From IMG/VR virus record IMGVR_UViG_3300020049_016248: a stretch of DNA of 64,000 nucleotides, one strand, 5' to 3'. The notes under the pieces are model-generated. The model did no database searches. It saw only the letters and a list, made by a program, of their open reading frames with translations, and had not been told where the DNA came from. This document shows, piece after piece, positions 10,714 through 55,404 of the stretch. How positions within the stretch are numbered: the first letter of the stretch is position 1; each line of letters begins with the position of its first letter. A program made the position numbers and the translations under genes. The stretch is from a virus. Its lineage: Duplodnaviria > Heunggongvirae > Uroviricota > Caudoviricetes.

Positions 10714-11658
10714 ATGTATAAAAGTATAGGTGACATTAAAGAGTTTTTAAAAAAAAACTCTGAGACTGTTTATATTAAAAAACAAGCAAATAGTAAGTCT
10801 AAAATAACTTGGGAAGTTACCCCTGTAATTGAGGTCCCTTCAACTCACCCTGGTGTACTTAAAGTGAGTCAATTTTTAGAAAAAAAACAGTTTAAAAAAG
10901 AAGTTTATAATGTTAAACTGAATTTCGCTGATTTGAAAGTCAATGAAGAAACATGTAAAAGTATTGCAGAAGATTTTGTAGTTAACAGTTATTTAATACT
11001 AGGATTTAACCCTAAAACTAAATTATATGTAATAGTAGCACCTCTAATGGGTTTATGGAAATTTGATGCAGGGTATTTAATAGGTGTCGGTGAAGAATTA
11101 TTTCCCCCAGTGAAAAAGTATCGATCAGCAACAGAAGCAATGAAAGCTATAAATTGGTTTTCTGACCCTATAAATTTTAACGAAAATAAAAAAACAATGG
11201 CAAAGATATCACGCGAAAAACAATTAACAATAGCTCTTTTAAAAGAGAAGATCGAAAAAGCAACTGGTAAAAAGGTTGTATTCGAAGAATCAAAAGAAGA
11301 TAAGTTAAAACGTTTAATTGAACAATTAGAAAAAGTAACTGGTAAAAAAGTTGTTTTTGAATCAGAAGAAACAGAAAAAACACCAGAAGAATTAGAAGAA
11401 GGTTTATTTGGTAAAAAGTCTGATGCTGAGTTTCAAAAAGAATACCAAACTACAATTAATCTTTGGACTAAAAAAGGTTATAAACAACCTGATATAAATG
11501 CTATCATGGCTGCAGCTAAAGTTGATAAGTTTGAAGGTAAATTAGGTGTTGATAAAGAAAAGAATATCATCTACCGTGCTGCTAAAGATATTAAATGGCA
11601 AAATCAATTTGCTGGTGGTGGTACAGGAACAGCAACAGGTGGAACATCTGGAGCTTAA
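10714..11658 (+). CDS. putative internal head protein with two EKxTGKKVxFE motifs
   Basis: EKATGKKVVFEE and EKVTGKKVVFES; Gly-rich C-terminus. Confidence 0.6.
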   Translation: MYKSIGDIKEFLKKNSETVYIKKQANSKSKITWEVTPVIEVPSTHPGVLKVSQFLEKKQFKKEVYNVKLNFADLKVNEETCKSIAEDFVVNSYLILGFNPKTKLYVIVAPLMGLWKFDAGYLIGVGEELFPPVKKYRSATEAMKAINWFSDPINFNENKKTMAKISREKQLTIALLKEKIEKATGKKVVFEESKEDKLKRLIEQLEKVTGKKVVFESEETEKTPEELEEGLFGKKSDAEFQKEYQTTINLWTKKGYKQPDINAIMAAAKVDKFEGKLGVDKEKNIIYRAAKDIKWQNQFAGGGTGTATGGTSGA

Positions 11659-11678
11659 TAGAAGAAAATAAGAAATAA

Positions 11679-11714
11679 AAAACCTCGTAAACATTTACGA
11701 GGTTTTCTTTTTTT
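11679..11714. terminator. bidirectional terminator between convergent genes
   Basis: AAAACCTCGTAA-acat-TTACGAGGTTTT with A and T tails. Confidence 0.8.
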
Positions 11715-11727
11715 AATAAATTTATTT

Positions 11728-12621
11728 TTATTTTCTTAATTCAGAATTAACTTCATTCACTATATCATACAACAAAGGGTTCTTAGAATATTCAATCAAC
11801 TTTGCGTAAACTTCAACATTCTTTTCAGCTTCATTCTTAGGAACACCTGAATTAGTTAAATCAATAGAACTAATATCAAAACCTTCTTGAATTAAATACT
11901 TTAAATTTTCTTCACGAAAAGTATAAAAATATCTTAATTTTAAAACAGAAGAAAGTTCAGAGAATAAATCAGCTTTATATGCTGGGAAAGCAGTTAAGAA
12001 AGCTTTCAAGTTTTGTTCAAAGAAAATCTCACGTACAAGCGGAAAGAGTCTCAAAGTTATTTCACGAAGTTGTATTTCTTTAACAACGTCAAGTTTAAGC
12101 ATTAAATCTACACGTTCATTTATAGATAATTTTATGTTTCTTAAAGAAAATGCAAAGAAATCTCTAGGTCGAGTAACAGGTACTCCATTGTTTAAGAGAT
12201 AATCGATTATTTCATAAGTACAATGAGAAAGAGCATACCCTAAAGTATTATGAAAACTCCCTAAACTTCTAGGTGGTTTATTCAAAAGCTTAGTTTTATT
12301 AAGTTTTTGTAATGCATCAAAATCGTTTTTTACAAGTAGCTCGTAAACACTAGTTGCGTTACCTGCTATTCTAAGTTCTAATTCTGAGAATGGAACTTTA
12401 GCTAAATTCCAAAGGTCATCTTTTGTCTTGAAGACACGCATTGTAGAATATGTTGCCCCTTTATTTAAAGTAACATAAGCAAAAGCAGCTGTTTCGATTG
12501 CAGAGTAATCTTTTTTTGAAATTGAATTATTAGGAATACTTTCTGATTCAATCATTTTAATTACACCTTCACATTTTGTTCCTTTAATTCGAATTAAAGA
12601 ACCTACTACAAATTTAGTCAT
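11728..12621 (-). CDS. ankyrin-like helical-repeat protein with C-terminal IxxEL tag
   Basis: TLGYALSHCTYEIIDYLLNNGV and LKYLIQEGFDI ankyrin-like segments; ends LYDIVNEVNSELRK. Confidence 0.55.
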   Translation of the reverse strand: MTKFVVGSLIRIKGTKCEGVIKMIESESIPNNSISKKDYSAIETAAFAYVTLNKGATYSTMRVFKTKDDLWNLAKVPFSELELRIAGNATSVYELLVKNDFDALQKLNKTKLLNKPPRSLGSFHNTLGYALSHCTYEIIDYLLNNGVPVTRPRDFFAFSLRNIKLSINERVDLMLKLDVVKEIQLREITLRLFPLVREIFFEQNLKAFLTAFPAYKADLFSELSSVLKLRYFYTFREENLKYLIQEGFDISSIDLTNSGVPKNEAEKNVEVYAKLIEYSKNPLLYDIVNEVNSELRK

Positions 12622-13307: not shown

Positions 13308-13322
13308 GGCTCTTAATTTATA

Positions 13323-13725: not shown

Positions 13726-14505
13726 ATGAAATCAATAAGAAAAGAACGTTTTTTATTAGATGAGTCTAAGTGGGACAGAAAAAGAAAGATGAACTCTAAA
13801 GCATCTACTTTTTTATTAGAATCAGAAGGTGGAGAATCTTATATAGAAAGATGTAAACGTAATCCTGATTTGCCTTTATTCTTAACAGGTATTATTCAAA
13901 CAGGGGATAAGCCAAATAGAAATAATAGAATTTATCCATGGGAATATCTTAAAAGAGAATGTTTAAGATATATGGAAGAAAAAGTTAATACAGGTTTATC
14001 ATATTGTGAATTAAATCACCCAGAGAACTCTACAACCCCAGATCTTAATAATGCATGTGCAACAATTGATGATATCTGGTTTAAAGGTAAAGATGTTTAC
14101 GGTAGAGTAAAAGTATTAAATGCTTTTATGCCAGAAACAGCACCAGGTAAAATGGTTAGAGGTTTTATTTTAAATGGTAAAAATATAGGTATCTCATCAA
14201 GAGCATTAGGGTCATTACAAGAAGATTCTTATTCAGAGCATGATATAGTAGATGAAGACTTAGAATTAATTTGTTGGGATTTAGTAGATAGTGCATCTAA
14301 CTTTGGTTCAGAAAAATTAGATTTAACAGAAAGTTCATCTAAAAAATCTTCTTTACTGTTGACAGAAAGTCAATGTTATGAAGGTGTTTGTGGTTTAAAT
14401 AATAAACAAATTAAAACTTTAAATCAATTAACTGAATCGGAACAAACATATTTGAATATACTTGGAGTTGAAAAGTACTTACAAATATCTGCTAAGTTAA
14501 AGTAA
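13726..14505 (+). CDS. gp21: prohead core protease (T4 gp21-like)
   Basis: GIIQ..D.PNRNNRIYP, ELNHP (His), IGISSRALGS (Ser), WDLVD. Confidence 0.93.
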   Translation: MKSIRKERFLLDESKWDRKRKMNSKASTFLLESEGGESYIERCKRNPDLPLFLTGIIQTGDKPNRNNRIYPWEYLKRECLRYMEEKVNTGLSYCELNHPENSTTPDLNNACATIDDIWFKGKDVYGRVKVLNAFMPETAPGKMVRGFILNGKNIGISSRALGSLQEDSYSEHDIVDEDLELICWDLVDSASNFGSEKLDLTESSSKKSSLLLTESQCYEGVCGLNNKQIKTLNQLTESEQTYLNILGVEKYLQISAKLK

Positions 14506-14633: not shown

Positions 14634-16160
14634 ATGGCAAATAAAAACAAAAAAAACGTTACTGACGTATTTGATGGTTTAAAATACGTTGATAAAGTTC
14701 TTAATGAAGCTGCCGGTGTTAAAACAGATAAAGATTCTTTAAATGAATCTTTTGAAGATCGTTTAAGAAACCGTCTTACAGAAAACACAGAGGAAGCTGA
14801 AACTGAGGATTTAAACGAATATGAAAATGCTTACAATTATAATTACAATTATGATGAAGCAGGTTCAAATGAGTTTTTAGGAGAAGAATTTCCTGAAGAC
14901 GAGGATGAAGACGAAGATGAATTAGATATTGATTCATTAGGGTTAGATCTTGACAACGAAGTAGGTGCAATTGCTGCTGCTGATATGGAAGATGAATTTT
15001 CATCAGAAGATGAAGATGAAACTAATCCATGGAAAGAAGGTGAAGAAGAAAATTTCAACTTTGAAGAAGATACAGATTTAATGGAAGCATTATTATCTGA
15101 AGGTCCAGAAGATGAAATTGAATCACCAGAAGTAGAAGTTCCTGAAATTTCTGACGAATTACCTGCAGAAGGTGATGTTCCAGCTCCAGTTGATGTTGAA
15201 GCAGGTGTTGATACAGCAGAAGGTGATTTAGATTTAGGTGCTGCTCCAGAAATGGGTGGTGATATGTCTATGCCATCTATGAGTGATGTTTCAGCATCAG
15301 AACCATCAGGTGTAGAAGATATAACAGCTTCAGCAGAAATTACTCCTATTGCACAACCAGAAGATATTGATCAGTTAATTGCTGATTTAGTATCTCCAGA
15401 AGGTGAAGTAGAAGAAACATCTCCAGTAGTAATCGGAGAATCTGAATTAAAAGATTTAGGTTTTGAAAACTTAGGTGATGAAGACGTTGATTCAAAAGTA
15501 AAAATGGAATCTAAAAACAACAAAACAAAAGCAATCGTGGAAGGTGAAATTAAATTAACTAAACTAGGAGATAAAGAAATCACTGGAAACGTTAGAGGTG
15601 CAGAAGCATCTAAAGCAGTAAAACATTCTGGAACAGGTAAAAAAGTAGACCCATCTGGAAATACTTTTGAAGATTTAGGAGATGAAGATATTAATTCAAC
15701 TAAAGTAAAAGAAACAGGTTCAGCTAAAGTAACTGCTCAACCAAAATTTGCTGAATTGAAAAAAGAATCTGAACAAAAATCTAAAGCTTTATATAATTTA
15801 GCTGAACAAGTTGTAGATTTACAAGATGAAGTATCTAAGTTAAAGTTTGAAAATTTCAAATTAAAACAAGCTAATTCAGTTCTTACATTAGTAGAAGAGT
15901 TAAAACAATCTACTAGAGAGAAATTAGTTGAGAAATTTGATAATTGCAAAACAGTTGCAGAAGTTAAAAAACTTTACACTGAAGTTGCTTCAATGGTAAA
16001 AGAACACAAACGTGGTTCAATTAACGAAGCAGTACTTAAAAATTCAAAATCAATTAAGCATTTTGCTGAATCAGTAAATTCTCCAGAAGAAGATAATGAT
16101 CAAGCAAGAAAAAATTACTTAATGGGTCTTGAAGGTTATGATGATCAATACTTAAAATAA
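14634..16160 (+). CDS. prohead scaffolding protein
   Basis: very acidic with C-terminal coiled coil, between protease and MCP; many LxE sites. Confidence 0.8.
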   Translation: MANKNKKNVTDVFDGLKYVDKVLNEAAGVKTDKDSLNESFEDRLRNRLTENTEEAETEDLNEYENAYNYNYNYDEAGSNEFLGEEFPEDEDEDEDELDIDSLGLDLDNEVGAIAAADMEDEFSSEDEDETNPWKEGEEENFNFEEDTDLMEALLSEGPEDEIESPEVEVPEISDELPAEGDVPAPVDVEAGVDTAEGDLDLGAAPEMGGDMSMPSMSDVSASEPSGVEDITASAEITPIAQPEDIDQLIADLVSPEGEVEETSPVVIGESELKDLGFENLGDEDVDSKVKMESKNNKTKAIVEGEIKLTKLGDKEITGNVRGAEASKAVKHSGTGKKVDPSGNTFEDLGDEDINSTKVKETGSAKVTAQPKFAELKKESEQKSKALYNLAEQVVDLQDEVSKLKFENFKLKQANSVLTLVEELKQSTREKLVEKFDNCKTVAEVKKLYTEVASMVKEHKRGSINEAVLKNSKSIKHFAESVNSPEEDNDQARKNYLMGLEGYDDQYLK

Positions 16161-16211: not shown

Positions 16212-16255
16212 ATATTTAAAAACAATAAAACAAAAAAAACAATAAAAAAACAACA

Positions 16256-17992
16256 ATGAAAAATTTGAGAGAAAATACAAAATCTCATGAACTTGGAAGA
16301 TTGTTAGAGCGTTCAGAAATGGCGAAGCGTCAAACAGTGGTTGAAGCTTGGAAAGGTTCTGGATACTTATACGGTTTAAAAGGTCGTGATTTAGGTAATA
16401 TGGCTATGTTAGCTGAAAACCAAAAAAGACAAATATTAAGAGAAAATAACACAACAGCTGATATGGCAGTGTTTGATACAATCGCTATTCCGATGATCAG
16501 ACGTCAAAACGCTTTGATGGTTTCTCCTAATTTAATTTCTGTACAACCATTATCATATCCAAACGGTATTGCGTTTTACTTAGATTATAAAGTATCAAAC
16601 ACAAAAAAACCTATTAAATCTACTTATTTAGAGAACGATTTATCAGGTGGTCAAGCTGATGATATGACAGGTAATACATTTGAATCAACATCTGGTTACG
16701 ATCGTCATTATAATAACTCAGGTTATGACAACACAAAAGGTAAAGAAATTGCTCGTGGTTGGAATCCAAACACAACTAACTTTAACAATACATCAATTGG
16801 AGGTTTAGATGATACAGCTTTTGCTGCAGCATTCTCTAAAGCAGGTGTTGATATGGGTACAGGTGCAGGAGTTATCAACATTAATGTTATCGATTTCGAT
16901 TTAACAGCAATGGGTGGTATTACAATGGACCAAGCAGCTTCTATCACTGTATATGAATCTACTGGTGCATTAGTACAAGGTACAGATTTCTTCGTACAAA
17001 GAGTTGTTAATAACTATACTGATTATTCTTTATCAACAGGTCGTACTGGTGGTGGATTAACAACATCAGAAGCAGGTCCAGCGTCTACAAACAATGGTAT
17101 CTCTGGTCCAGGGTCAGCAAATAAAATTTTACGTTTACGTATTATCCCAACAAGTGATAATCAAGGTACAGTAGCTTTACGTTTAGGTTTCAAACAATAC
17201 TTAAATTTAGAGTTGTATCCAGCGTTCTCTTCTGAGTTGAAATTGGAAATTAAATCAGTTCCTATCCAAACTCAAATTCATAAAATGAAAACAGCTTGGA
17301 CAGTTGAATTAGCTCAAGATTTAATGGCATACCATGCTATTGATGCTGAAGCAGAATTAACTCAATTGTTAGCTGAAGAAGTAGCTGCTGAAAAAGACAG
17401 ATTAGTTATTCGTGAGTTAGTTAACTTAGCAGGACATTTTGAAGTATGGAATGCTGATTTTGCTAATGCAGTAGATCCAAATCCAGCTAACACTGTATTC
17501 CGTGGAACTGAGGCATCTTACAACCAAACATTGATGTTGGCAATTAATCGTGCAAACGGTAAAATCCAAAAATCAACAAAACGTGGTGGTGCTAATTGGA
17601 TTTTAATTTCTTCTGAAGGTGCAGCTAAAATGGTTAATATGGATACATTTAAACCAACTGACTTAAATGAAGAAGGAACAAAATTTGCAGCAGGTGTTGA
17701 AAGAATTGGTTCATTAAACCAAAAATACACAGTGTATGTAGATCCACATTTACCAGCAGAAGTTTGTTTAGTAGGTCGTAAAGGTACTTCATTCTTCGAT
17801 TCAGGTTATGTATATTGTCCTTATATTGAGTATATGTTATCTCCAGTTGTTTTAGAACAACAAGATTTCAATCCTCGTAGACAAATTGCTTCTCGTTTCG
17901 GAACATCTATGTTGAACAATAAATTCTTCGCAGTTGTTTGGATGAAAGGTATGGAAGTATTCGATGTATTACAACCATCAACAACAGTGTAA
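16256..17992 (+). CDS. gp23: major capsid protein (T4 gp23-like) with large insertion
   Basis: LAENQ, PMIRR, SVQPL, WTVELAQDLMAYHAIDAEAEL, GYVYCPYI, DFNPR. Confidence 0.97.
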   Translation: MKNLRENTKSHELGRLLERSEMAKRQTVVEAWKGSGYLYGLKGRDLGNMAMLAENQKRQILRENNTTADMAVFDTIAIPMIRRQNALMVSPNLISVQPLSYPNGIAFYLDYKVSNTKKPIKSTYLENDLSGGQADDMTGNTFESTSGYDRHYNNSGYDNTKGKEIARGWNPNTTNFNNTSIGGLDDTAFAAAFSKAGVDMGTGAGVININVIDFDLTAMGGITMDQAASITVYESTGALVQGTDFFVQRVVNNYTDYSLSTGRTGGGLTTSEAGPASTNNGISGPGSANKILRLRIIPTSDNQGTVALRLGFKQYLNLELYPAFSSELKLEIKSVPIQTQIHKMKTAWTVELAQDLMAYHAIDAEAELTQLLAEEVAAEKDRLVIRELVNLAGHFEVWNADFANAVDPNPANTVFRGTEASYNQTLMLAINRANGKIQKSTKRGGANWILISSEGAAKMVNMDTFKPTDLNEEGTKFAAGVERIGSLNQKYTVYVDPHLPAEVCLVGRKGTSFFDSGYVYCPYIEYMLSPVVLEQQDFNPRRQIASRFGTSMLNNKFFAVVWMKGMEVFDVLQPSTTV

Positions 17993-21604: not shown

Positions 21605-21985
21605 ATGTTAATGAAAGATACTCAAAAGTTAATAAAATTGTTAGAAAGAGTAAGTGGGAAGAAAGTTAAATTAGTTGAAAGTTACAACTCTAATCTTTCT
21701 AATACTCTTAATACTTTAATAAGTGACGCAAAGTCAAATTGGATTTCAAGAGAAAAGTTAACTGGGAAGAAGGTTAAGTTAAAAGAAAACAATGATTATA
21801 TTAACTCTTACCAAGAGTTAATTTATAGACTATCTACAGTAATTGATGGTGAAAGCGATATTCAAGAAGAGATTAGTACCTTTTTATGGGATAATGATGG
21901 GTTTTGGAAATCCTTTTCACAAGTAGAGTTTGAAAATTTAGTGTCCAAACTAGAACTAGAATTTGAGGAGAAAGAAGAAATTTAA
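21605..21985 (+). CDS. putative internal head protein with two GKKVKLxE motifs
   Basis: ERVSGKKVKLVES and EKLTGKKVKLKEN; CTATTTAT upstream (21579). Confidence 0.6.
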   Translation: MLMKDTQKLIKLLERVSGKKVKLVESYNSNLSNTLNTLISDAKSNWISREKLTGKKVKLKENNDYINSYQELIYRLSTVIDGESDIQEEISTFLWDNDGFWKSFSQVEFENLVSKLELEFEEKEEI

Positions 21986-26770: not shown

Positions 26771-27664
26771 ATGAAACAAGTTTTAAAAGAAGTAAGATTA
26801 CCAAAGAGCTTTTTTAGAGTAGTAAGAAGTTTTACATTACCAGGTGTTGATGATTGGGATGTCGCTTTCAATAAAGATGAATACCTTTATTTAGATTCAT
26901 CTAATAAAGATGTTTTAGGGTATGCTACTCATTCTTATTTATGGAAAAAGAAAGGGGTTAAGTTTTCTCATTTATTATCCCCTCAAGGGTATAAAGAGTT
27001 TATGCAAAACGTTATAAGAATTGATGCAAATGAAGCACCTGAATTACCAGGTATTACAAAGAAGAAAGACCCAATTGAATTTACTACAACAATTAAAAGT
27101 ATAGGTAGAAAGTTAGATGATTTAGATTTAGAACCTTCTACTAAAATAAAAGTAGCAGTTTTAGAACAACATTTAACTAAGTTAACAGGAAAAGAAATTA
27201 GATTTGTAGAGTCGATAAACATAAGCGATTCAGACGTAAAACTTAAAAGAGGTTTAAGTATAATTGAAACAGAAGATTATATTATTAATTTCGATTATGA
27301 AGGGGAGAAAGCAACATTAAATTGGATTAATACTAAAACTAATAAGTATAAAGGGAAAGAAATTTTTAATGCTTTCTTAGATTATATGAAAAGTAAAGGT
27401 GTAAGAAAAATAGGTGCTTATGGAACTAAAGGGAATGTATATGGGATTAAAGCTTATGGTTATTATGTAATGTTAAAATGGGGTTTTATTCCAGAAAATA
27501 TCAGTGAAATAAACGACTTGTTAAGTACAAGTTATAATAGTTTTGAAGAAGCTTTACAAGATTCAAATTTTTGGAATCAATGGAAAGAAAAAGGTGATGA
27601 TTATTATGGAATATTTGATTTAACACCTAATTCTTTGTCATGGAAATTGTTTAATAGAGCATAA
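26771..27664 (+). CDS. GKKV-motif protein with GNAT-like C-terminal domain
   Basis: TKLTGKEIRFVES followed by KGKEIF...KGVRKI...GYYVMLKWGF. Confidence 0.5.
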   Translation: MKQVLKEVRLPKSFFRVVRSFTLPGVDDWDVAFNKDEYLYLDSSNKDVLGYATHSYLWKKKGVKFSHLLSPQGYKEFMQNVIRIDANEAPELPGITKKKDPIEFTTTIKSIGRKLDDLDLEPSTKIKVAVLEQHLTKLTGKEIRFVESINISDSDVKLKRGLSIIETEDYIINFDYEGEKATLNWINTKTNKYKGKEIFNAFLDYMKSKGVRKIGAYGTKGNVYGIKAYGYYVMLKWGFIPENISEINDLLSTSYNSFEEALQDSNFWNQWKEKGDDYYGIFDLTPNSLSWKLFNRA

Positions 27665-28224: not shown

Positions 28225-28463
28225 TGAAAGATAAAAAAAATAGAATTAGAAGTATATTAAAAGAAAGTTTAGGTGATATTATTGTTTATCCTAAAGATAT
28301 AGAATCTTTAGTTAAAGAAGAAGACCCTGATTTAACATCATTTGATTTAGAGCAAATTAAGCAAATTATTTTGCGTACAATGGCAGATGGTAAAATTGTA
28401 GAGAAAAAAGATATTCCTTTCTTTATAAATGTTTATATGAAATCTACTAAAAACTTAAACTAA
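28224..28463 (+). CDS. small virion-associated hypothetical protein
   Basis: RIRSILKES LxE site; in structural operon. Confidence 0.55.
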   Translation: MKDKKNRIRSILKESLGDIIVYPKDIESLVKEEDPDLTSFDLEQIKQIILRTMADGKIVEKKDIPFFINVYMKSTKNLN

Positions 28464-32630: not shown

Positions 32631-34043
32631 ATGGAAAAAGTATATTATTTTGAATATTACCCTTCTAGGGGTGATACTTTTAAAACAGCTGTGGTTTTAA
32701 CACTTGAAAGTTTGCAAGCTTTACGGAAAGCTCATGCAACTGACGATGAGTTGTTTGGTGAATTGGTAAGAAAACTAGAAACTAAAACAAAACAAACAAT
32801 ATGGTTTATATCAGAGATTCTTACTGATGAACCAAAATTAATTTCTAAACTGAAAAGTAAAAAGACTATTGGTGATATGACAGAAGAAGGAAGTTGGGCA
32901 ATGTCTTTAGTTAGTATGAAAGATGCTAAAAACAAAGTAAAAGAAATAGAGTTAGATTTAGACGAAGCAGTGGTAAAAAAAGCACCTACAAGTTTAGGTT
33001 TAATGACTGAAGAGTATAGGGATTTAAAAGATAATCTTTGGATTTTAAAAACAGCTATAAAAAAAGAACCAAATACAAAAAGGGGGAAAGAAGCAAAAGA
33101 AATTTTGAAAGCATATAAGTTTAATGAGTTTGATAAAGAAGAATATGATAACAAAGTTGAATATTTGGACAATGCAGTAGAAGAATGGATGGATTATTAT
33201 AATTGGAAAGAAGTCCCTTATCAAACAGAAAACAGTAATAAAATAAAAGAATCAGTTAAAAGTAAACTTAAAGAGTCAAGACCTAGCGCTATGAGTTTAG
33301 AAGAAATCACTTCTATAATTGGAGAAATGAATAATACAATAAGTGGTCCTAGTGAAGAGGGTAAACCTGGTGTTTGTATTGTTTACAGTTTTGAAAAAGA
33401 ACAATTAGATAAATTATGTTCAAAATATGGAATTGAATATGAAATAATTGAAAAATTCGTTGACGGTAACGGTGATGAATGTTTAGAAGTTCGAGAAAAA
33501 CAATTAAAAGAAAATAAAAATATAATGTCAAAGAAAAAACAAATAGAATTACTTGAAGGTGAAATTGAAAAACTAGCAGGTAAAAAAGTAAAATTAGTAG
33601 AATCTTCAATTGAATGTTCTTGTAAAAAAGATAAATTGACAGAAGCTAAAAAAGATAAAGAAGAAAAGGAAGAAGAAGAGGTTGAAGTAGAAGATACAGC
33701 AGTAGCAAAATCAGATGAAGCAGCGTTAAAAGCAGCTACAGAAGATGCTTCTGAACCAATCTTAGGTAATATTATTCCTGCTTCTGTTATTAAAGAAATT
33801 GACGCTTATGTTACAAATACATTAGCAGAGATTGATAAAGCAACAACTCAATTGAGAGCTATAAAAAAACAAATTACATCTGGTGCAACTGCATCTAATG
33901 AAGATTTTTCTACATTAACAGATAGAATTGCTTTCTTAGTAAAACAATTATCTCGTATTGCTCTTTATTCGTCTAATACTATTAAAGCTGGAAAGTTTGA
34001 TAAAACTTTGTTAGATAAAATTTTCGAACAAAAAGAACTTTAA
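32631..34043 (+). CDS. modular putative internal head protein with GKKV motif
   Basis: EKLAGKKVKLVES; LxE sites (LDEA, IKES, LKES, LKEN, LTEA) separate the modules. Confidence 0.6.
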   Translation: MEKVYYFEYYPSRGDTFKTAVVLTLESLQALRKAHATDDELFGELVRKLETKTKQTIWFISEILTDEPKLISKLKSKKTIGDMTEEGSWAMSLVSMKDAKNKVKEIELDLDEAVVKKAPTSLGLMTEEYRDLKDNLWILKTAIKKEPNTKRGKEAKEILKAYKFNEFDKEEYDNKVEYLDNAVEEWMDYYNWKEVPYQTENSNKIKESVKSKLKESRPSAMSLEEITSIIGEMNNTISGPSEEGKPGVCIVYSFEKEQLDKLCSKYGIEYEIIEKFVDGNGDECLEVREKQLKENKNIMSKKKQIELLEGEIEKLAGKKVKLVESSIECSCKKDKLTEAKKDKEEKEEEEVEVEDTAVAKSDEAALKAATEDASEPILGNIIPASVIKEIDAYVTNTLAEIDKATTQLRAIKKQITSGATASNEDFSTLTDRIAFLVKQLSRIALYSSNTIKAGKFDKTLLDKIFEQKEL

Positions 34044-34131
34044 TCTGATTAAAGTAATGTACAAAACAAATAAATTAATCGAAAAGTTAGAAAACTAGTT
34101 AATAAAAGAAACTGAAAAAGGAATTAGGTTA

Positions 34132-35073
34132 ATGTTTAGATATGTTGTAGGAATAGATAGAGGTGGAGTAACTGTAGATAGTTCTTCTAAAATATCTAAA
34201 GAAGAAATGTTACTTGAAGTAAAAGAAATAAGTGAAGAGTTTGATTATGGAATTTATTTTTTTCAAAAAGTTAACGTTTACACTGTTTTAGGGGATGAGT
34301 ACACAATAGTATATTCTCCAGTTGAAATTAACACAGGTAAAATTTTAAATTATGCACAAAACTCTGATGATGGTGTTTATGTTTCATTACAAAAGTTAAC
34401 TTCTTTAATAAAGGAAAGTAGCAACAAAGTAGATAAATTAATCGAAAAGTTAGAAAAACTAACTGGTAAAAAGGTTAAGTTAAAAGAAGCTTCATCTTCT
34501 ACAAAGTTTGAATTAACTAGTAAAGGAAAATCTTTAGTTGCTGATTATAAACAACTACATAGTGCATTAGTTAGATTAGGTGTTGAGGATGATTTTGAAT
34601 TAGGTGATGATGCTATGGATGCACAAACAGTATATGGTGCAGCTGTAGTTTTAAAAGATATAAATTCTTTAAAACCTTATTTTACTTTAGATGAAATAAT
34701 TGATATAGAAGGTGATGAAGAGTTTGTTGAAAAGACTTTGATTCCTTTATATCTAAGAAGAGGATATATTAAACAAGTAACGACAGAAAATGTAAAGTTG
34801 ACTGAAGTTGCAAAAACGTTTAAAAAAGACATTGGATTGAGTACATCGTTTGACGAATTCAGAGAAATAGATTCCTTGTTAAGAAAAGCTGGTTTTAAAG
34901 CATCAACGATAGAAGATACAGTTCGCGGAATTGTTGACGAAACTTTAGATTATTATTGGTGGATTGCTAGAGGTGATGATATGCCTCATGGTATTACAAT
35001 CAATAACCCTAAAATTTTTAAAACTAAAATGTATAACGCTTTATTAGACTATCAAGGTGAAAGCGAATATTAA
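34132..35073 (+). CDS. modular putative internal head protein with GKKV motif
   Basis: LIKES..EKLTGKKVKLKEA..LTEV. Confidence 0.6.
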   Translation: MFRYVVGIDRGGVTVDSSSKISKEEMLLEVKEISEEFDYGIYFFQKVNVYTVLGDEYTIVYSPVEINTGKILNYAQNSDDGVYVSLQKLTSLIKESSNKVDKLIEKLEKLTGKKVKLKEASSSTKFELTSKGKSLVADYKQLHSALVRLGVEDDFELGDDAMDAQTVYGAAVVLKDINSLKPYFTLDEIIDIEGDEEFVEKTLIPLYLRRGYIKQVTTENVKLTEVAKTFKKDIGLSTSFDEFREIDSLLRKAGFKASTIEDTVRGIVDETLDYYWWIARGDDMPHGITINNPKIFKTKMYNALLDYQGESEY

Positions 35074-44716: not shown

Positions 44717-44844
44717 TATGCATGAATTATTACACATAATAGGACTTTGTCCTGATAATTTAACTCACACAGATTTGATTGACCTTGTTGCAATTAATTA
44801 TAGTGAGTTAAGTTATTTAACTTTGAATATAAAAAATAAAATAA

Positions 44845-45129
44845 ATGGCACAACGTGGAACACAAAAAGAAGAAAAACCATTAAAAAAGTTGTCAAAAAC
44901 AACAAATAAAGCTCCAGGTAAAAAAGGTAGACCTAAAAAGCAAGACAAATCTAATTTACCTGAAGTGTCTAAAATAGTTCAAACCACACAAGTTGGACCA
45001 GAAGAATTAAAAGCTATTTTAGATAAAGCAAAACAAGAAGAGTCGAAAGCACTTAAGCAAGTTAATGCTCCAGGAGTTAGTCCAGTACAAGTAAATGTCT
45101 TGTATAACCATACAATTAAAAGAAAATAA
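44845..45129 (+). CDS. basic protein with AT-hook-like KKGRPKK
   Basis: motif and Lys richness. Confidence 0.5.
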   Translation: MAQRGTQKEEKPLKKLSKTTNKAPGKKGRPKKQDKSNLPEVSKIVQTTQVGPEELKAILDKAKQEESKALKQVNAPGVSPVQVNVLYNHTIKRK

Positions 45130-45130
45130 T

Positions 45131-45403
45131 ATGATTGAACCTGTTAAGTCTATAGAAATCCCTATAGGTTATACATTAGAGAATAAACTCATTAGCGTAA
45201 TAGTTAATGAGTTTATTTTTAAAAAGATAAGTTCAAAAGAATTTGTTGATATTGAACATTGGCAAAAAGAATTATCTGAAATGTTGTTACTAAAGTTAAA
45301 ACTACCTATTTTTCGAGTAGAATTAACCAAAGAAGATCAATTGATTACCGGGTTAGTTGAAAGTACTAAGAATAATCCTTTAAAATTTGAAATAAAAATA
45401 TAA
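45131..45403 (+). CDS. hypothetical protein
   Basis: ORF in operon. Confidence 0.55.
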   Translation: MIEPVKSIEIPIGYTLENKLISVIVNEFIFKKISSKEFVDIEHWQKELSEMLLLKLKLPIFRVELTKEDQLITGLVESTKNNPLKFEIKI

Positions 45404-46080
45404 TGAAAATTAAATATATCGTTACTGTTCCTAAGAGTGAAGATGCTACAGAAGCAAATCTAATTTCTGAAACATTAAAAAGTGTTACAACTATTATTGG
45501 TTCATCTAGAGATGAAGTAAGTGTTGTGAGATACGAATTAAACAAAGAAGAAGAAGAAATCAATAAAGAAGTTAATAAAACAGCTGATGCATTTACACAT
45601 GTTGTTATTATAAACGCTGGTTCAACTTTAAAAGATCATTTTAGAAAAACTGTAGAAGAATATGTAGGTTCTGACAAAGAAACAATTTATCTACCAATAG
45701 TTGAATTGTATACAGAGGAAGCAGGTGAATATTCTTTCAGAGCATTTTTAAATTCGTCTTTATGGAAACCTTATTTAACTGATGAAGTAGGTAAGTTAGA
45801 TTTAAAATTATCTAAAAGAGGAATTGATTTGATTCAATATGGGGCAATTATTCCACTTGATATACTTAAAAAATATTCATTTAAAGAAGATATTAAATAT
45901 TACTCTTATTTTGAATTTTTTAATCGTGTATTAAGTAATGAGGTAAAAGTTAAAAGTATCCCGCGAACTTTACTTCTTTGCAAAAAAGATTACGAACTTA
46001 AAAACGTTTCAAAAGACGAAAAATTAGAAGAGTTTAAAAAAACGCAAGAAGTCTTTCTCACTACAGTAGTTAATCCTTAA
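45403..46080 (+). CDS. degenerate GT-A (GT2-like) glycosyltransferase-fold protein
   Basis: YIVTVP, IYLPIV, FLN..LW, YFEFFNR..IPR; near the GT-B gene. Confidence 0.45.
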   Translation: MKIKYIVTVPKSEDATEANLISETLKSVTTIIGSSRDEVSVVRYELNKEEEEINKEVNKTADAFTHVVIINAGSTLKDHFRKTVEEYVGSDKETIYLPIVELYTEEAGEYSFRAFLNSSLWKPYLTDEVGKLDLKLSKRGIDLIQYGAIIPLDILKKYSFKEDIKYYSYFEFFNRVLSNEVKVKSIPRTLLLCKKDYELKNVSKDEKLEEFKKTQEVFLTTVVNP

Positions 46081-49824: not shown

Positions 49825-50670
49825 ATGGAAACAACATTTATTTATGCACTGATTGACCCTAGAGATAATAAAGTAAGATATATTGGGAAAGCAAATAAGC
49901 CTAAGTATCGTTTACAAGCACATTTAACAGATAAGACAAAAACACATAAATGTAGTTGGATTAAAAGTTTGTTAAAAGAAGATTTAAAACCAGAACTTTT
50001 AATCATAGATGAAGTTTCTTTTAAAGAATGGCAATTTTGGGAACAACATTATATCAGTTTATATAAATCATGGGGGTTTAATTTAACTAATGGAAACAGT
50101 GGCGGGTATGGACAGGTAAAATGTTCTGAAACTACTCGGGTAAAATTACGTCTAGCAAATTTAGGTAAAAAAATTTCTAATGCGACAAAAATTAAAATGA
50201 GTAAAAGTCATAAAGTATTTTATGCAAAAATGACTATAGAGCAAAAAAAAGAAAGAAAAAAAATTGCCAAACTAGCAGGTAAAAAAACAAAAAAAACACG
50301 AACAAAAAACAATTCATATTCTCGATCTTTAGAATCAATAGAGAAAATGTTACAAACGAGAGTTGAAAAAAAGTTAAATAAACATTCAGAAGTCGCTAAG
50401 GCTAAAATGCGTGAAAGACGATTGGAAAACCCGGTTACCTTTTGGAAAGGTAAAACTAGTGAAAATTGTGAGCAAGTTAGAAAAAATGCAGAAAAGCGTT
50501 GTAAAAAAGTTTTGCAAAAATCTCTTGAAAACGGTAGTGTTAAAGAATGGTCATCAATAAAAGAAGCTGCGTTGACACTAAATATAGCATCTTCTAGAAT
50601 AAGTGAATGTTGTAATTCATATAAAGGAAGAACAACAATTGGTAAATATAAATGGGAATTTAAGAAATAA
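49825..50670 (+). mobile_element. free-standing GIY-YIG homing endonuclease with NUMOD3/NUMOD1-like repeats
   Basis: FIYALIDP..VRYIGK, EQHYI, LTN..GG, SEETRxK-type repeats, WSSIKEAA..ISECC..YKW. Confidence 0.85.
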
Positions 50671-50682: not shown

Positions 50683-52857
50683 ATGGCAAGTACACAAAAC
50701 GTTCAAGTTAATTATTTAAGTAGAGATTTTAACTCTTTGAGAGAAGATTTAATTAATTTTGCAAAACAATATCATCCGGATAAGTTTGCTTATTTTAACG
50801 ATGCTTCACCAGATATAATGTATGCAGAAATGTGTGCTTTCGTAGGAGATATGTTATCTTATTATACAGATAAGAGTTTTAACGAAAGTTTTCTATCAAC
50901 TGCACAAGCAGGTTTATCATTAGTTAGAATTGCACAAGATTTAGGGTTTTTTGAATTAGGTCAAACACCTGCTTCAACTCAAGTGATGTTATCTATCACA
51001 GTACCTAAATATGTAGACCCTTTAACAGGAGTTGTTTCTCCTAACTCTGATTTATTACCTGCTTTGAAACCTGGGATATTATTAAAATCAGACAGTGGTG
51101 TTAGTTTTGAAATCTTAGAAGAAGTTAATTTTGCTGATTCATTCAATCGACAAATAATCCCTAATTTTGATGCTAACAATCAAATAATTGATTATGTAGT
51201 AGAAAAAGCAGTAGTTGCAAAGGCTGGTGAGACAAAAATACAAAGATTTTATGTATCAGCTGATTTAGCTAAACCTTTTTTAAACATTACATTAGATGAT
51301 AATGATATTACTGAAGTTGTAGGTGTTGTTACAAAGACAGGTAATCAATATGTAGCACCTCCAGATGAAGATTTTATTGACCCAGACAAAGCATGGTTTG
51401 AGGTAAGAGCTTTAGCAGATAATAAATTATTCGTTGATATAAATACAACTCAACAAGTTACTCAAAGTTTAGCAAGTTATATTACTCCAGTAGTAAAACA
51501 AGGAACATATGTAGATATTCCTAAAAGATTTATTACTAGAAGAGATGTTAATGGTTTAGTTTCTTTAACTTTTGGTTCTAGTACACCATTGTTTGATTCT
51601 TTTAATAGTTTAATACAACAAAGTGTTGTTAATTCAAGTACAATTTCTTTGAATACTGTATTACAAAATTCTGTTTTAGGTGAAATACCTGCCCCGAACA
51701 CAACTTTATTTATAAAGTATAGAATTGGTGGCGGAGTTGAATCTAATGTTCAAACAGGTCAAATTAACACAGTTGCTATCAAGACATTTTTCCCTGCATC
51801 ACCAACAGCATCTTTAACAGATTTACAAACTGTTAGAAACTCGTTGAAAGTAAGAAACGATATACCAGCAATGGGTGGTAAAGCTGCTCCTTCTAAAGAA
51901 GAGATAAGAGCAACTGCATCTAAATTGTTTGCTGCACAAGACAGAGGTGTAACTTATGAAGATATTAAGAGTATCATTTCAACTATGCCACCAGAGTTTG
52001 GTAGACCTTTTCGTATAGCTTATGAGGAAATAAAACCAAGAGTGGCAAATTATCAACAAGTAGAAAATGGTGTCAATTCATTGTTAACTGATTTACTTGC
52101 AGAAACTACTGCAGTAGGGAGACAACAGAAAGCACAAGCTATTTCTAAATTCTTAACAGATTTAAGAAATGGTCCAGTTACTATAAATAATACAACAGTT
52201 CAATCAACGTTAGATACTACATCTTTAAACTTATTAGGTGTAGCACCAAGTTTATGGATTGGGGAAAAGGCTAGGTTATATGTATTAGGAATAGATGAAA
52301 ATCAACAATTACTTTCTGCATATAAAAATAGTGATAACATTTGGATATCACCAAATGAATTATTGAAAACAAATATAAGAGAATTTTTATCTACAAAAAG
52401 ATTAATAGGGGATTGGATTGATATAGTAGATGCTAGAATTGTAAATATTCAAGTAGAATTTACAGTTTTAGTAGATAAGAAAAATAAGCAACAAGTATTA
52501 CTTGAATGTTTAAATAAATTAAGAGATTATTTTAATATTAACAACTGGCAAATTAATCAACCAATATTTGTATCAAACGTAAGTACTATTTTACAAGAGA
52601 TTAACGGTGTGATAAACGTTGTTGATTTGAAATTTTATAATATTTTCGGAACATCAACAAGTAATATAGACCCTATATCAGGTAGAGTTTATTCTCCAAT
52701 AGAAACAGGTCGTTATAGAAACAATTCCTCTACTCCAGCTTCTTTAAGTAACAATAAGTTTTTAATGAATCAAGTTAATGGAGTAATATTACCTTATAGT
52801 GATACTATTTTTGAAGTAAAATACCCCGAGAGCGATATCGTGGCTAAGGCAATTTAA
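50683..52857 (+). CDS. gp6: baseplate wedge protein (gp6-like)
   Basis: YLSRDFNSLREDL, FVGDMLSYYTD, YRIGGG..SN, AQDRGVTYED, EVKYP..DI. Confidence 0.9.
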   Translation: MASTQNVQVNYLSRDFNSLREDLINFAKQYHPDKFAYFNDASPDIMYAEMCAFVGDMLSYYTDKSFNESFLSTAQAGLSLVRIAQDLGFFELGQTPASTQVMLSITVPKYVDPLTGVVSPNSDLLPALKPGILLKSDSGVSFEILEEVNFADSFNRQIIPNFDANNQIIDYVVEKAVVAKAGETKIQRFYVSADLAKPFLNITLDDNDITEVVGVVTKTGNQYVAPPDEDFIDPDKAWFEVRALADNKLFVDINTTQQVTQSLASYITPVVKQGTYVDIPKRFITRRDVNGLVSLTFGSSTPLFDSFNSLIQQSVVNSSTISLNTVLQNSVLGEIPAPNTTLFIKYRIGGGVESNVQTGQINTVAIKTFFPASPTASLTDLQTVRNSLKVRNDIPAMGGKAAPSKEEIRATASKLFAAQDRGVTYEDIKSIISTMPPEFGRPFRIAYEEIKPRVANYQQVENGVNSLLTDLLAETTAVGRQQKAQAISKFLTDLRNGPVTINNTTVQSTLDTTSLNLLGVAPSLWIGEKARLYVLGIDENQQLLSAYKNSDNIWISPNELLKTNIREFLSTKRLIGDWIDIVDARIVNIQVEFTVLVDKKNKQQVLLECLNKLRDYFNINNWQINQPIFVSNVSTILQEINGVINVVDLKFYNIFGTSTSNIDPISGRVYSPIETGRYRNNSSTPASLSNNKFLMNQVNGVILPYSDTIFEVKYPESDIVAKAI

Positions 52858-52899: not shown

Positions 52900-53973
52900 A
52901 TGGATTTGGGAAAATATCACTCATTGCAAAAGAAATTTGAAAACAAACGCTTCGAAAAAACTCATTACTGGACTAATAAAACTTTATACTATGGTTCTTT
53001 TTTAGGGAACTTACTAAGTATTATACTTGCTTTCTTCTTTGTTAATAAAATTTCCAAAGAAACAGCAGTTCATTTTGCAGGTCAAGATTGGATATTACCA
53101 ATCTTTGTTGTTCTTTTCTTAACAATATTTGAATTTGCTAAACGATTTACCTTTGCAAACACTGTAGTTTCTTATCTAACTACAAAGAAACTAACCTTAA
53201 CTTTTTTTCTAAGTTTAATTTTTTCCTTATCTCTTGTAGGTTTAACCTTTTATTTATCTTTAAGTGGAGCAAATCATTATGCTAATAAATCAGAGGTCAT
53301 TGAGATTAATACTCAACAAAGTATCAATAAAGTAAATGATAGTTTAACAAATTATTATGTTGTTGAAAATAAGAAATTAGAAGATAGAATTGATTATCTT
53401 TATACAGCAGCTGCACAAAGAAAAAAGAAAAGCTTAACAGAGAGTGAAGTACAACAAGTACAAGGGTGGGAAGTTCTAATAGAAAAAAACAAACAAGTAT
53501 TAGAAAATAAGATTAAAGAAGCAAATCAAGTTTCATTATTAAGTGCAGAGAAAGAAAAAGAAAAATCTAGTAAAAATCAAATAGCTTTTATTTTGATTTC
53601 TGCATTTATTGAATTGTTAATTTTAATAGGTGTAGGTTTCTCTCAATATTATGCATTTCTTTCTTTCAAAGAAAAGAAAGAAGCTCTTGTAAACAATGCG
53701 AACTATCATAAACTTATTAATTACCTTGATCTCTTAAGAGTTCTATACAACAATGGTAAAACAACAACTGGTGCTATTTTACCTTCTTTTAATCAATTTA
53801 AAGATTTAGCTAACGCTTCAGGAAAAAAATATCAATATAAAACTTTAAAAGAATTTATAACACTAACAAGTCATTTGAAAGTAATACAAACAGTAGGTAA
53901 AAATAAAACAGTAATTGTTTCTTATGAACAAGCACAAGAGATAATAAATAACTATTTAACAATAGAAGATTAA
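52900..53973 (+). CDS. multi-TM membrane protein with coiled coil
   Basis: three N-terminal TMs, coiled coil, one further TM. Confidence 0.65.
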   Translation: MDLGKYHSLQKKFENKRFEKTHYWTNKTLYYGSFLGNLLSIILAFFFVNKISKETAVHFAGQDWILPIFVVLFLTIFEFAKRFTFANTVVSYLTTKKLTLTFFLSLIFSLSLVGLTFYLSLSGANHYANKSEVIEINTQQSINKVNDSLTNYYVVENKKLEDRIDYLYTAAAQRKKKSLTESEVQQVQGWEVLIEKNKQVLENKIKEANQVSLLSAEKEKEKSSKNQIAFILISAFIELLILIGVGFSQYYAFLSFKEKKEALVNNANYHKLINYLDLLRVLYNNGKTTTGAILPSFNQFKDLANASGKKYQYKTLKEFITLTSHLKVIQTVGKNKTVIVSYEQAQEIINNYLTIED

Positions 53974-53987
53974 CTAATACATAACAA

Positions 53988-54740
53988 ATGAGAAAACCGA
54001 AAAGTAAAAAGCGTTTATCCTCTGAGGAAGAAGATGAAATTGTTCGAAGTATGAATCAAAGAGCTAAACCTAACGAGTTTAATTTGAATAACTTAAACAT
54101 AAATTTTAAATGTAAAACAGAAAATCAAAAAAAATTCGTCAATTTAATCAAAGAAAAAGAAATTATAATTGGTGCTGGGTTTTCAGGTTGTGGTAAGACT
54201 TTTCTTGCAGCTGCACAAGCTTTAAAACTATTGAAATCAGAACCACATTTTAAAAAAATCATGTTAGTTAAATCAGTAACTGATTTGAAAGGTGAAGAAG
54301 TAGGGTTTTTAAAAGGTGAGTTGAAAGATAAAATGCAACCTTATATGGAATCTTTCAAAGATAATTTTACTAAATTGATAGGACCAGCTAATGCTAACAA
54401 ATTACAAGAATTAGGGTTGATTGAAATACAACCTTTAGCATTTATTCGTGGAAGATCGATTGATAATACGATTATTATTGTAGATGAAGCTCAAAACTTA
54501 AGTTATGATGTAATGAAAGCTGTTTTAACTCGAATAGGGGAAAATAGTAAAATAATTATAACTGGAGATGTTAAGCAAATAGATTTAAAGCAAAAGCGAG
54601 AATCTTGTTTGTTATGGTTAACAGAAAAGTTTGAAGGTAATTCTCACTTTGGGGTTGTAAAGTTTGAAAAAACAGATCAGGTGAGAAACCCAATAATTAA
54701 TATTATTGAAGATATGTTTGATGAATTAGATAATAAATAA
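53988..54740 (+). CDS. phoH: PhoH-family ATPase
   Basis: GFSGCGKTF, GFLKG, PLAFIRGRS, DEAQN, TRIGE, GD..QID, RNP. Confidence 0.95.
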   Translation: MRKPKSKKRLSSEEEDEIVRSMNQRAKPNEFNLNNLNINFKCKTENQKKFVNLIKEKEIIIGAGFSGCGKTFLAAAQALKLLKSEPHFKKIMLVKSVTDLKGEEVGFLKGELKDKMQPYMESFKDNFTKLIGPANANKLQELGLIEIQPLAFIRGRSIDNTIIIVDEAQNLSYDVMKAVLTRIGENSKIIITGDVKQIDLKQKRESCLLWLTEKFEGNSHFGVVKFEKTDQVRNPIINIIEDMFDELDNK

Positions 54741-54768
54741 CTATTTATCAATATAATCTAAGTTAAAA

Positions 54769-55404
54769 ATGAATTATCAACAAAATATACAGAAGTTAAA
54801 TAAAGCTTTGGAGATGTTAGCAAATCAAGATAAGCTAACTCCGCAACATGAAACTAAAATTAAACAAATTAATCAAATTACTGATTTGTTTCAAAAATAT
54901 ACTGCTTTAAATAAGTTTTATATTGATAGTAACTTCCCAGCAATTGATACGTTGTTAAAACCAGAGGTAGAAAGTAAATCAGGTTTATCTTCAGAAGAAA
55001 TAAACACTATGAAGTTAGATCAAATAACTACTTGGTTAAATATTTATAACACTGTAATAAATACTAAACATAAAAACGATGAGTTTGATAAAAACACTTT
55101 TGCTGAATTGTTAAATTCAAATAAAAAAGCTGGAAACGATACTAGAAAGCAATTATTAAGTTTAGTTTCATTTGCTAACAAATATCTTGCAGGTGAAAAT
55201 ATTAAAGCAGAGTTTGATAAAATTAAAGAAGAACAAGGTAAACAAACTACTCAATCTCAACCTGCAAGCGTTGTTGATAATTTAACTGCTAAAGGTTTAA
55301 CAAGTGTGAAGAAAAAATCACCTGAGGAAATTAAATTATTAAATAGATATGTTAGTTATATTGAAAAATTAACTGGTCAAAAAATCAAATTTGTTGAAAA
55401 TTAA
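54769..55404 (+). CDS. late protein ending in a GKKV-type motif
   Basis: CTATTTAT upstream (54741); ends IEKLTGQKIKFVEN. Confidence 0.6.
   Translation: MNYQQNIQKLNKALEMLANQDKLTPQHETKIKQINQITDLFQKYTALNKFYIDSNFPAIDTLLKPEVESKSGLSSEEINTMKLDQITTWLNIYNTVINTKHKNDEFDKNTFAELLNSNKKAGNDTRKQLLSLVSFANKYLAGENIKAEFDKIKEEQGKQTTQSQPASVVDNLTAKGLTSVKKKSPEEIKLLNRYVSYIEKLTGQKIKFVEN

Follow-up and report, generated by a model that had tools for sequence, protein, structure and literature searches.

A portable peptide tag on unrelated late proteins of an uncultured T4-like phage, a candidate head-targeting propeptide

Introduction

Why would unrelated late proteins of one phage carry the same peptide? The question is raised by a 64,000-nucleotide stretch of DNA (the window, meaning the whole stretch analysed) from the 191-kb genome of an uncultured T4-like phage, in which six genes, here called A to F, share a motif rich in Lys and Glu. 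A preliminary description had counted eight copies in these genes and taken the peptide for a helix-turn-strand module that brings diverse cargo into the prohead, where a protease would release it.

The idea of a portable head-loading tag is not new, having been established by T4, whose capsid-targeting sequence (CTS) was reportedly described by Mullaney and Black in 1996. The T4 internal proteins have host take-over or anti-defence functions, and we know of no receptor for the CTS to date. The CTS consists of the first 10 residues of IPIII, is common to IPII and has a similar form in IPI (PMC9026906, PMC3012670).

Results

An HMM was built from the eight window copies, all of which were found in genes A to F as described, and was run on the whole 191-kb genome. 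It returned 10 copies in eight proteins, at 22–36 bits, with the runner-up below 9 bits, and a regular expression for the core matched 10 times in the genome, while 200 shuffles gave 0.03 matches on average and never more than 1. The gap in the HMM scores and the comparison with shuffles exclude a chance origin, and the genome bears one peptide of 25–30 residues on eight unrelated late proteins, in line with the diverse cargo that had been claimed. At identical residues, the codons of two copies agree in 55% of cases, below the 60% expected from codon usage, and the mean nucleotide identity between copies is 56%. The low codon identity indicates that what is repeated is the peptide and not the DNA, and that selection works at the peptide level.

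All tagged genes and tag copies in the window lie on the plus strand. Gene A (10714..11658, 314 aa) carries two copies, with the tag Gly at residues 185 and 210: A1 (11233..11295; 21-aa core, ...EKATGKKVVFEES; 30.4 bits) and A2 (11308..11370; ...EKVTGKKVVFESE; 31.0 bits). An in-frame ATG at 11197, within gene A, opens a 153-aa form, A-short, in which the tandem tag is followed by an acidic linker and a conserved C-terminal domain; relatives at 91–93% identity are stand-alone 153-aa proteins. Gene B (21605..21985, 126 aa; Gly at residues 18 and 54) is a single plus-strand gene among minus-strand genes, with its own CTATTTA, and its two tags, the N-terminal B1 (21623..21685, Gly at residue 18; 31.6 bits) and B2 (21731..21793; 34.7 bits), precede an acidic C-terminal part of 65 aa. 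Upstream of the sheath cluster lies gene C (26771..27664, 297 aa), which is missing from the equivalent place in the relative L020 and has one copy, TKLTGKEIRFVES, with Gly at residue 140 (27155..27217; 33.5 bits).

Genes D and E both lie between sheath and tube. Gene D (32631..34043, 470 aa) has its tag Gly at residue 317 (33546..33608; 28.8 bits), and gene E (34132..35073, 313 aa) at residue 112 (34432..34494; 32.3 bits); in the relatives P0040 and P0090, part of the gene E cargo stands behind an N-terminal tag. Between the two genes, at 34057..34098 and also on the plus strand, we found the decayed copy that had been claimed, a tag remnant reading MYKTNKLIEKLEN-stop. Gene F (54769..55404, 211 aa), after PhoH and with its own CTATTTA, ends in its tag (55342..55401; last 20 residues, ...KIKFVEN-stop; 36.0 bits). 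The genome has two more carriers beyond the window, one with an internal copy (genome 38502-39173) and one with an N-terminal copy (genome 53957-54979). A separate C-terminal tag, I-x-x-E-L, occurs on 33 ORFs, none of which is among the eight ORFs with the present tag, as stated earlier.

The eight tagged genes are all on the late strand, behind or downstream of a TATTTA box. This sequence stands 15–45 nt upstream of 47 of the 279 genes (3.2% expected), and among these it precedes TerL, portal, protease, scaffold, major capsid protein (MCP), sheath and tube. The claim that all carriers belong to TATTTA-driven units holds directly for A, B and F, which have the box 15–45 nt upstream, but C, D and E have none of their own and are instead downstream of genes that do.

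We extended the HMM search to relatives, as the preliminary description had proposed, by a profile search over 1.84 billion proteins. It yielded 136 copies in 108 representative proteins, whose cargo, with the tag masked, groups into about 72 clusters unrelated to one another. The consensus of the 136 copies is EKxLxIxLLxEK(L/I)EKL(T/S)GKKVx(L/F/Y)xE, with a net charge of about +2.5 and I/L at -12, -9, -5 and -2 relative to the Gly. The tagged proteins have a median cargo length of 94 aa, to which the size of the T4 internal proteins is roughly comparable. The smallest carriers, P0012 (46 aa) and P0046 (32 aa), consist of little besides the tag.

The tag had been described as differing from the T4 signal in being internal, C-terminal or duplicated. 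This is true of the present genome, where the only annotated N-terminal tags are B1 and that of the protein at genome 53957-54979, but 92 of the 136 metagenomic copies are N-terminal as in T4, with the Gly 12–28 residues from Met1. The internal copies of A and D come directly after in-frame ATGs, at 33525 in the case of D, where the proteins of close relatives begin (for D, P0058 and L020 13087-13566), and they become N-terminal only if these internal ATGs are used. We considered whether internal copies are in general fused gene starts; an in-frame Met at the expected distance was found for 9 of 22 internal copies, compared with 26% expected, and this enrichment is not significant (p 0.09).

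Searches of Pfam and PHROGs with the six window carriers gave no match above noise, and 76 metagenomic carriers gave nothing beyond scattered matches to cargo domains; 61 carriers have no precomputed Pfam domain. A profile search of the PDB with the tag had a best E value of 0.23, which is not significant, and the likenesses to the L7/L12 N-terminal helix (E 0.4) and to the eS7 tail, also non-significant, were taken as chance. No match was found by tblastn in cultured phages with two typical carriers, p352 and A-short, a search in which the low-complexity filter may hide some matches. The tag is absent from Pfam, PHROGs, the PDB and the cultured phages searched.

Structure prediction did not show the proposed helix-turn-strand fold: AlphaFold gives a helix and then coil, with modest confidence. 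The model of B, made with no alignment, has a pLDDT of 51 and is usable only as 'helix then coil', while that of A-short, from 17 sequences, reaches 68 with a confident C-terminal domain. For this domain Foldseek found no match in the PDB or BFVD, VIA-align gave Z values of 3.6 or less for the A-short fold, and the ESM Atlas held no usable match. Prediction of complexes with the full scaffold, the protease and a 33-aa tag alignment scored 0.00, which speaks neither for nor against binding.

In the relative L019 the gene order around the head module runs portal, NUDIX, small tagged protein, p352, tandem-tag protein, protease, scaffold and MCP, with the A-like gene directly upstream of the protease. 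The best-conserved carrier, the tandem-tagged A-short family, lies in the interval from portal to protease that in T4 holds core genes 67 and 68. Tagged genes come and go at fixed hot spots, and a given cargo can be either tagged or untagged, as seen on comparison of window 28224-28463 with L012/L020, and of ORF 44491-45480 on the minus strand of the genome with L020 13588-14190. The internal-protein loci of T-even phages turn over likewise, with only the CTS in common (PMC3012670, PMC9026906).

The tag was said to end in hydrophobic-x-Glu, and it does so in all 10 genome copies and in 122 of the 136 metagenomic ones (~90%), with the Glu at Gly+6 or +7 after L, F, Y, I or V. Among cargo-proximal copies the proportion is 100/106, and the conserved Glu is followed by a polar linker; of the three C-terminal copies, behind which no cargo remains to be freed, two lack the Glu. 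Glu-less copies are also in excess upstream of another copy (Fisher p 0.0185), an excess that comes from one protein family.

The presumed cutting enzyme is the T4 gp21-type prohead protease at 13726..14505 (plus strand; phrog_207, 'head maturation protease', E 2.8e-35), whose ortholog in the relative G001 matches phrog_207 at 3.9e-36. Sites of similar form occur in several head proteins, all encoded on the plus strand. The protease termini have LDE|S and two LTE|S sites, and the scaffold-like protein between protease and MCP (14634..16160, 508 aa), which has an acidic half and a helical C-terminal part, has LNE|A and INE|A, all invariant among three relatives; the scaffold also has invariant F-x-E|S/G sites. 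The MCP of the gp23 family (16256..17992; Pfam Gp23, 5.8e-60) has MLAE|N and ILRE|N at the point corresponding to the cleavage site of T4 gp23. In p352 (9612..10670), the head-module protein adjoining A, (L/I)-(V/A)-E|S/T is invariant at residue 97, with LVE|T across three homologues, and one p352 homologue, P0085, is fused to the tag. These matching sites are weak evidence, because hydrophobic-x-Glu is common in such K/E-rich proteins.

Discussion

We consider that the tag is probably (roughly 0.55) a portable head-targeting propeptide similar to the T4 CTS, lineage-specific and longer, which would be cut off by the prohead protease. Tagged proteins would be made late, together with the head proteins, and the tag, with its predicted amphipathic helix, basic turn (T/S-G-K-K) and short extended piece (V-x-L/F/Y), would dock onto a conserved site of the prohead core during assembly; candidate receptors are the scaffold and A-short, the core protein with the tandem tag. 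Once the shell has assembled, the gp21-type protease would cleave (L/F/Y)-x-E behind its Glu, which stands at Gly+6 or +7, and so free whatever follows the tag; the cargo, of median length 94 aa, would be retained inside the head and may exit together with the DNA. Packaging, core binding, cleavage and injection of the tagged proteins are thus what we infer from the sequences.

The propeptide reading draws on the 10 copies in eight proteins here and the 136 copies on about 72 cargo clusters, under selection at the peptide level; on the N-terminal bias (92/136) together with the median cargo of 94 aa; and on the hydrophobic-x-Glu ending (122/136), with the Glu missing from two of the three C-terminal ones. 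The gp21-type protease and the sites of the same form in protease, scaffold, p352 and MCP also point to it, as do the tandem-tag protein at the place of T4 core genes 67 and 68, the late-strand, TATTTA-linked position of all eight genes, and the hot-spot turnover, with cargo found with or without the tag and the remnant at 34057-34098. Against it, known protease determinants are all much shorter and less conserved than the tag, which also bears no resemblance to the T4 CTS; only two copies in this genome have an annotated N-terminal position; and the excess of Glu-less copies (p 0.0185) comes from a single protein family. In addition, the near-tag-only proteins P0012 and P0046 fit a role of the tag itself, and C, D and E sit among tail genes, not head genes.

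The position of these three genes, beside sheath and tube, would suit a general association module, made of a short helix and a strand, through which late proteins pair with one another or bind a hub that is not the prohead, such as a target in tail, neck or host, and are neither packaged nor cut. The tandem, internal and C-terminal copies, the near-stand-alone tag peptides and the AlphaFold helix, which is isolated and not packed on cargo, also fit, as does the weak likeness (E 0.4, not significant) to the N-terminal helix by which ribosomal protein L7/L12 dimerises. However, such a module has no need of the N-terminal bias (92/136) or of a conserved Glu with a polar linker, and the Glu dropped from two of the three C-terminal copies and the best-conserved carrier between portal and protease also argue against it; we hold it rather unlikely.

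A somewhat smaller chance is given to the tagged proteins being accessories of the prohead core or scaffold, like T4 gp67/gp68, that are cut up, the pieces largely leaving the head or else staying in it as basic internal peptides, and that are not delivered to the host. The A-short family, tandem-tagged, conserved and at the gp67/gp68 position, looks like such a protein, and the mini-proteins made of the tag alone and its net charge of about +2.5 agree with it; the core proteins of T4 are fragmented by cuts at several L/I-x-E sites (PMC9026906). The roughly 72 clusters of unrelated cargo, their rapid turnover and a winged-helix-like cargo, on the other hand, suit passengers better. This alternative keeps targeting and cleavage, and departs from the propeptide reading only in the fate of the product.

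It is improbable that the tag is a recognition signal for a phage AAA ATPase (820-2004) and ClpP (2309-2971; Pfam 1.1e-14), timing the destruction of late proteins. Both genes adjoin TerL, just upstream of it, and are conserved in L019, and Clp signals are often at protein ends; yet a K/E-rich helical module of 25–30 residues, tandem or internal, differs from the short degrons that are known, this reading gives the conserved Glu no role, and no link between tag and ClpP was found. Finally, we reject the idea of a repeat kept as DNA, for recombination or regulation with the peptide as a by-product, which would agree with the recombination near tags shown by cassette turnover and the truncated leader at 34057-34098 but is contradicted by the codon identity (55% vs 60% expected) and nucleotide identity (56%).

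Regarding the receptor of the proposed propeptide, we tentatively suggest, as a less likely extension, that it may be the conserved core protein with the tandem tag, tag pairing with tag; any protein that acquires the tag would be co-assembled into the prohead core, released by cleavage and injected. All injected proteins of the lineage could then be read from sequence, and they would include a winged-helix-like DNA-binding protein that enters along with the DNA.

The T4 CTS is the nearest parallel, being likewise a short peptide on unrelated, fast-changing proteins of T4-type phages, encoded by scattered late genes, and ending in hydrophobic-x-Glu, the gp21 cut site; its N-terminal place is shared by most metagenomic copies of the tag. 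In contrast, the tag, a putative targeting signal, has 25–30 residues instead of 10, is far more conserved, and is also found in tandem, internally, C-terminally and on a conserved head-module protein; its sequence resembles the CTS only in the final hydrophobic-x-Glu, which makes it an analogue and not a homologue. The A-short family and p352 resemble T4 gp67/gp68 in lying between portal and protease, but neither matches a Pfam or PHROGs family, and A-short has no fold match. In P1 DarB, an N-terminal signal of about 30 residues sends the protein into the capsid for delivery; the signal is known from one protein, not as a portable shared module, no protease site is described at its end in the portions of the account consulted (PMC9024508), and P1 is not T4-like. 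In phiKZ, 201phi2-1 and SPN3US, many head and ejection proteins are cut by a gp21-related protease after the Glu of a short motif, and the propeptides can hold several cut sites (PMC10052503, PMC9026906). These propeptides differ in being long (20–254 residues in SPN3US, where they end in A-x-E) and protein-specific, and in having no single shared tag.

If the propeptide reading is true, the packaged and possibly injected proteins of an uncultured lineage of large T4-like phages, with contigs up to ~340 kb, could be listed by their tag, and about 72 cargo families would be marked as candidates for host take-over or anti-defence. The tag is long and conserved enough for a receptor search, and could be used, like the signals of T4 and P1 today, for bringing foreign proteins into capsids. 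In IMG/VR, a scan for the EKLTGKKV pattern gave 47 matches, of which only five hold the real tag, all in the same lineage, and a metagenome scan for the tag gave at least one short locus.

Tag copies in the genome and their late setting

The window corresponds to bases 62291-126290 of a single contig of 191,278 bp with a G+C content of about 29%. The phage is a distant T4-type myophage, encoding TerL (5613-7445), a gp20-type portal (7488-9185; Pfam, 9.3e-58), a T4 gp21-type head maturation protease (13726-14505; phrog_207, 2.8e-35), a gp23-type major capsid protein (MCP; 16256-17992; 5.8e-60), a sheath (29401-32229), a tail tube (35221-35760) and a baseplate wedge protein (50683-52857). Its MCP is only 27-34% identical to those of the nearest cultured phages, and the relatives at 82-86% MCP identity are IMG/VR fragments only. 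A scaffold-like protein of 508 aa (14634-16160) is encoded between the protease and the MCP; one half is very acidic, with a stretch of ~250 residues extremely rich in Asp/Glu, and its C-terminal part is helical, these 140 residues being highly conserved in relatives. From its position and make-up, we take it as the candidate scaffold.

All eight GKKV tag copies of the preliminary description, and the decayed copy, were recovered where it had placed them. An HMM of the eight copies, searched against six frames of the whole genome, gave ten places at 22-36 bits, with everything else at 9 bits or less, and the core regular expression had 10 matches, where shuffled proteins gave 0.03 on average. 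The two extra copies lie outside the window, one internal to a 223-aa protein (genome 38502-39173), the other at the extreme N-terminus of a 340-aa protein (genome 53957-54979).

TATTTA stands 15-45 nt upstream of 47 of the 279 genes in the whole genome, against 3.2% expected, and the genes it precedes include TerL, portal, the head-module protein p352 (9612-10670), carrier A (10714-11658), protease, scaffold, MCP, sheath and tube. The form (C/A)TATTTA, as at 16213, 13700 and 29367, precedes nearly all recognisable structural genes and is likely a late-promoter element, unlike that of T4, TATAAATA. All copies had been assigned to TATTTA-driven late units. This holds directly for A, B (21605-21985), F (54769-55404) and the 38502 carrier, which have their own box; C (26771-27664), D (32631-34043), E (34132-35073) and the 53957 carrier have none, each following a boxed gene. 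The carriers all lie on the plus strand, B being a single plus-strand gene surrounded by minus-strand genes. The T4 internal-protein genes are similarly arranged.

A homing-endonuclease-like gene (phrog_314, HNH; 49825-50670) directly precedes the baseplate wedge gene, and a PhoH-like gene (53988-54740) lies between F and the gene for a 357-aa uncharacterised protein that follows the wedge gene.

Distribution, cargo and turnover

A profile of 33 columns, built from 18 copies (genome and IMG/VR relatives), was searched against 1.84 billion representative proteins, and with an E-value limit of 0.001 it recovered 108 proteins, which together carry 136 tag copies. Their consensus reads E-K-x-L-x-I-x-L-L-x-E-K-(L/I)-E-K-L-(T/S)-G-K-K-V-x-(L/F/Y)-x-E, then S, N, D, K, A or E. 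Most copies (92) sit at the N-terminus, their Gly 12-28 residues from Met1, while 41 are internal and 3 C-terminal; 26 of the 108 proteins have two copies. The tag was not found in Pfam, PHROGs or PDB, nor by tblastn in cultured phages, and in IMG/VR it is limited to a few contigs of the same lineage.

With the tag masked, the carriers fall into ~72 clusters. Where the tag is N-terminal, a median of 94 residues follows it. Known domains are almost absent: the few matches include an HMG box, DUF3008 and, for the ortholog of the N-terminally tagged 53957-54979 protein, a winged helix (Penicillinase_R, 24.4 bits against a cut-off of 22.6; PHROG 'transcriptional activator'). In D (33609-33630) and in the metagenomic proteins P0012, P0060 and P0092, among other things, the tag is followed by short stretches rich in Cys (ECSCK, CGCGCGC, CHCGNSCC); P0012, of only 46 aa, is tag plus CGCGCGC.

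Relatives differ in their tagged genes at fixed places: upstream of the sheath cluster, in the interval from sheath to tube, and next to NUDIX. A 79-aa protein (28224-28463) is without tag here, and its orthologs in L012 and L020 are tagged; L020 also has, behind an N-terminal tag, a domain that here belongs to the minus-strand protein of genome 44491-45480, and its ortholog of D begins at the tag. A leader stump of 13 codons remains between D and E. T-even internal proteins are reported to be highly diverse, with the capsid targeting sequence (CTS) as the only common part (PMC3012670, PMC9026906).

In-frame ATGs lie just 5' of the tags in A (11197) and D (33525), with a shared A-rich context (GAAAATAAAAA..ATG) that at 11197 is the one usual for starts, and relatives' proteins start at these positions. 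A and D may therefore each yield two products, one long and one short, or may have arisen by recent fusion to an ORF upstream.

A candidate cleavage site

T4 gp21 cleaves after L/I-x-E (PMC9026906). Hydrophobic-x-Glu is present in 122 of the 136 copies, the Glu six or seven residues past the Gly. Sites of like form are invariant among relatives in protease and scaffold (three relatives) and in p352 (two homologues and this genome): LDE↓S and, twice, LTE↓S at the protease termini, LNE↓A, INE↓A and F-x-E↓S/G in the scaffold, and (L/I)-(V/A)-E↓S/T at p352 residue 97 (arrows, candidate cuts). The MCP has MLAE↓N and ILRE↓N at about the T4 gp23 cut position, residue 28 of mature T4 gp23 aligning with MCP residue 75. 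T4-type proteases process head proteins of these kinds.

The site is kept in 100 of 106 cargo-proximal copies, against 22 of 28 that are followed by a further copy (p 0.0185); the six site-less upstream copies are one family, and thus count as one event. Two of the three C-terminal copies stop before the Glu. These points fit a release site, though weakly, since K/E-rich proteins of this sort often contain hydrophobic-x-Glu.

Possible roles of the tag

The best-supported account, to which we give a probability of about 55%, is that the tag acts as a T4 CTS-like propeptide for head targeting, cut off by the gp21-type protease. The tag would bind in head assembly and be removed by this protease, and the tagged proteins would be packaged and then injected. 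Its relation to the T4 CTS is one of analogy rather than homology; new are its length, how strongly it is conserved over ~72 cargoes, the existence of tandem and non-N-terminal copies, and its conserved head-module carrier.

The tag could instead be a general pairing module, a possible but clearly less probable reading. AlphaFold (17-sequence alignment, pLDDT 68) was applied to A-short, the 153-aa C-terminal part of A. Each tag is modelled as a helix then coil, so that of the proposed helix-turn-strand shape the helix is predicted and the strand is not; the acidic linker is unstructured, and the small C-terminal domain is confident, with no match to known folds. In the model the tag stays clear of the cargo, as would be expected of an autonomous module.

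It is rather unlikely that the tagged proteins are core proteins in their own right and not cargo.

In the relative L019 the head module is unbroken: portal, NUDIX, a 96-aa N-terminally tagged protein, the p352 ortholog, a 220-aa protein beginning with two tags, protease, scaffold and MCP. The T4 prohead core genes 67 and 68 occupy the corresponding place in the T4 gene order. Among the carriers, the tandem-tag protein is conserved best; it is represented here by the C-terminal 153 residues of A and in relatives by stand-alone 153-aa proteins, 91-93% identical. For the propeptide account, a tag on a conserved head-module protein suggests how cargo could join the core.

A signal to the phage's AAA ATPase and ClpP is improbable. 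Genes for an AAA ATPase (820-2004) and a ClpP-family protease (2309-2971; Pfam, 1.1e-14) lie immediately upstream of TerL and are both kept in L019; two proteases, ClpP and one of the gp21 type, are thus encoded close to the head genes of this phage. A DNA-level feature is barely credible: copies share 45% of residues and only 56% of bases, and identical residues use the same codon in 55% of cases (60% expected from codon usage), which excludes a DNA repeat and indicates that selection acts on the tag peptide.

Other observations

The NUDIX hydrolase gene (9185-9553) lies directly 3' of the portal gene; in L023, a more distant relative, small N-terminally tagged genes stand on each side of it. 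None of the proteins ending in the other, I-N-x-E-L-N tag carries the GKKV tag, as the preliminary description had it; these C-terminally tagged proteins number at least 33, and most are small ORFs located away from the structural modules, from 55928-63599 in the window on to about genome position 175000.
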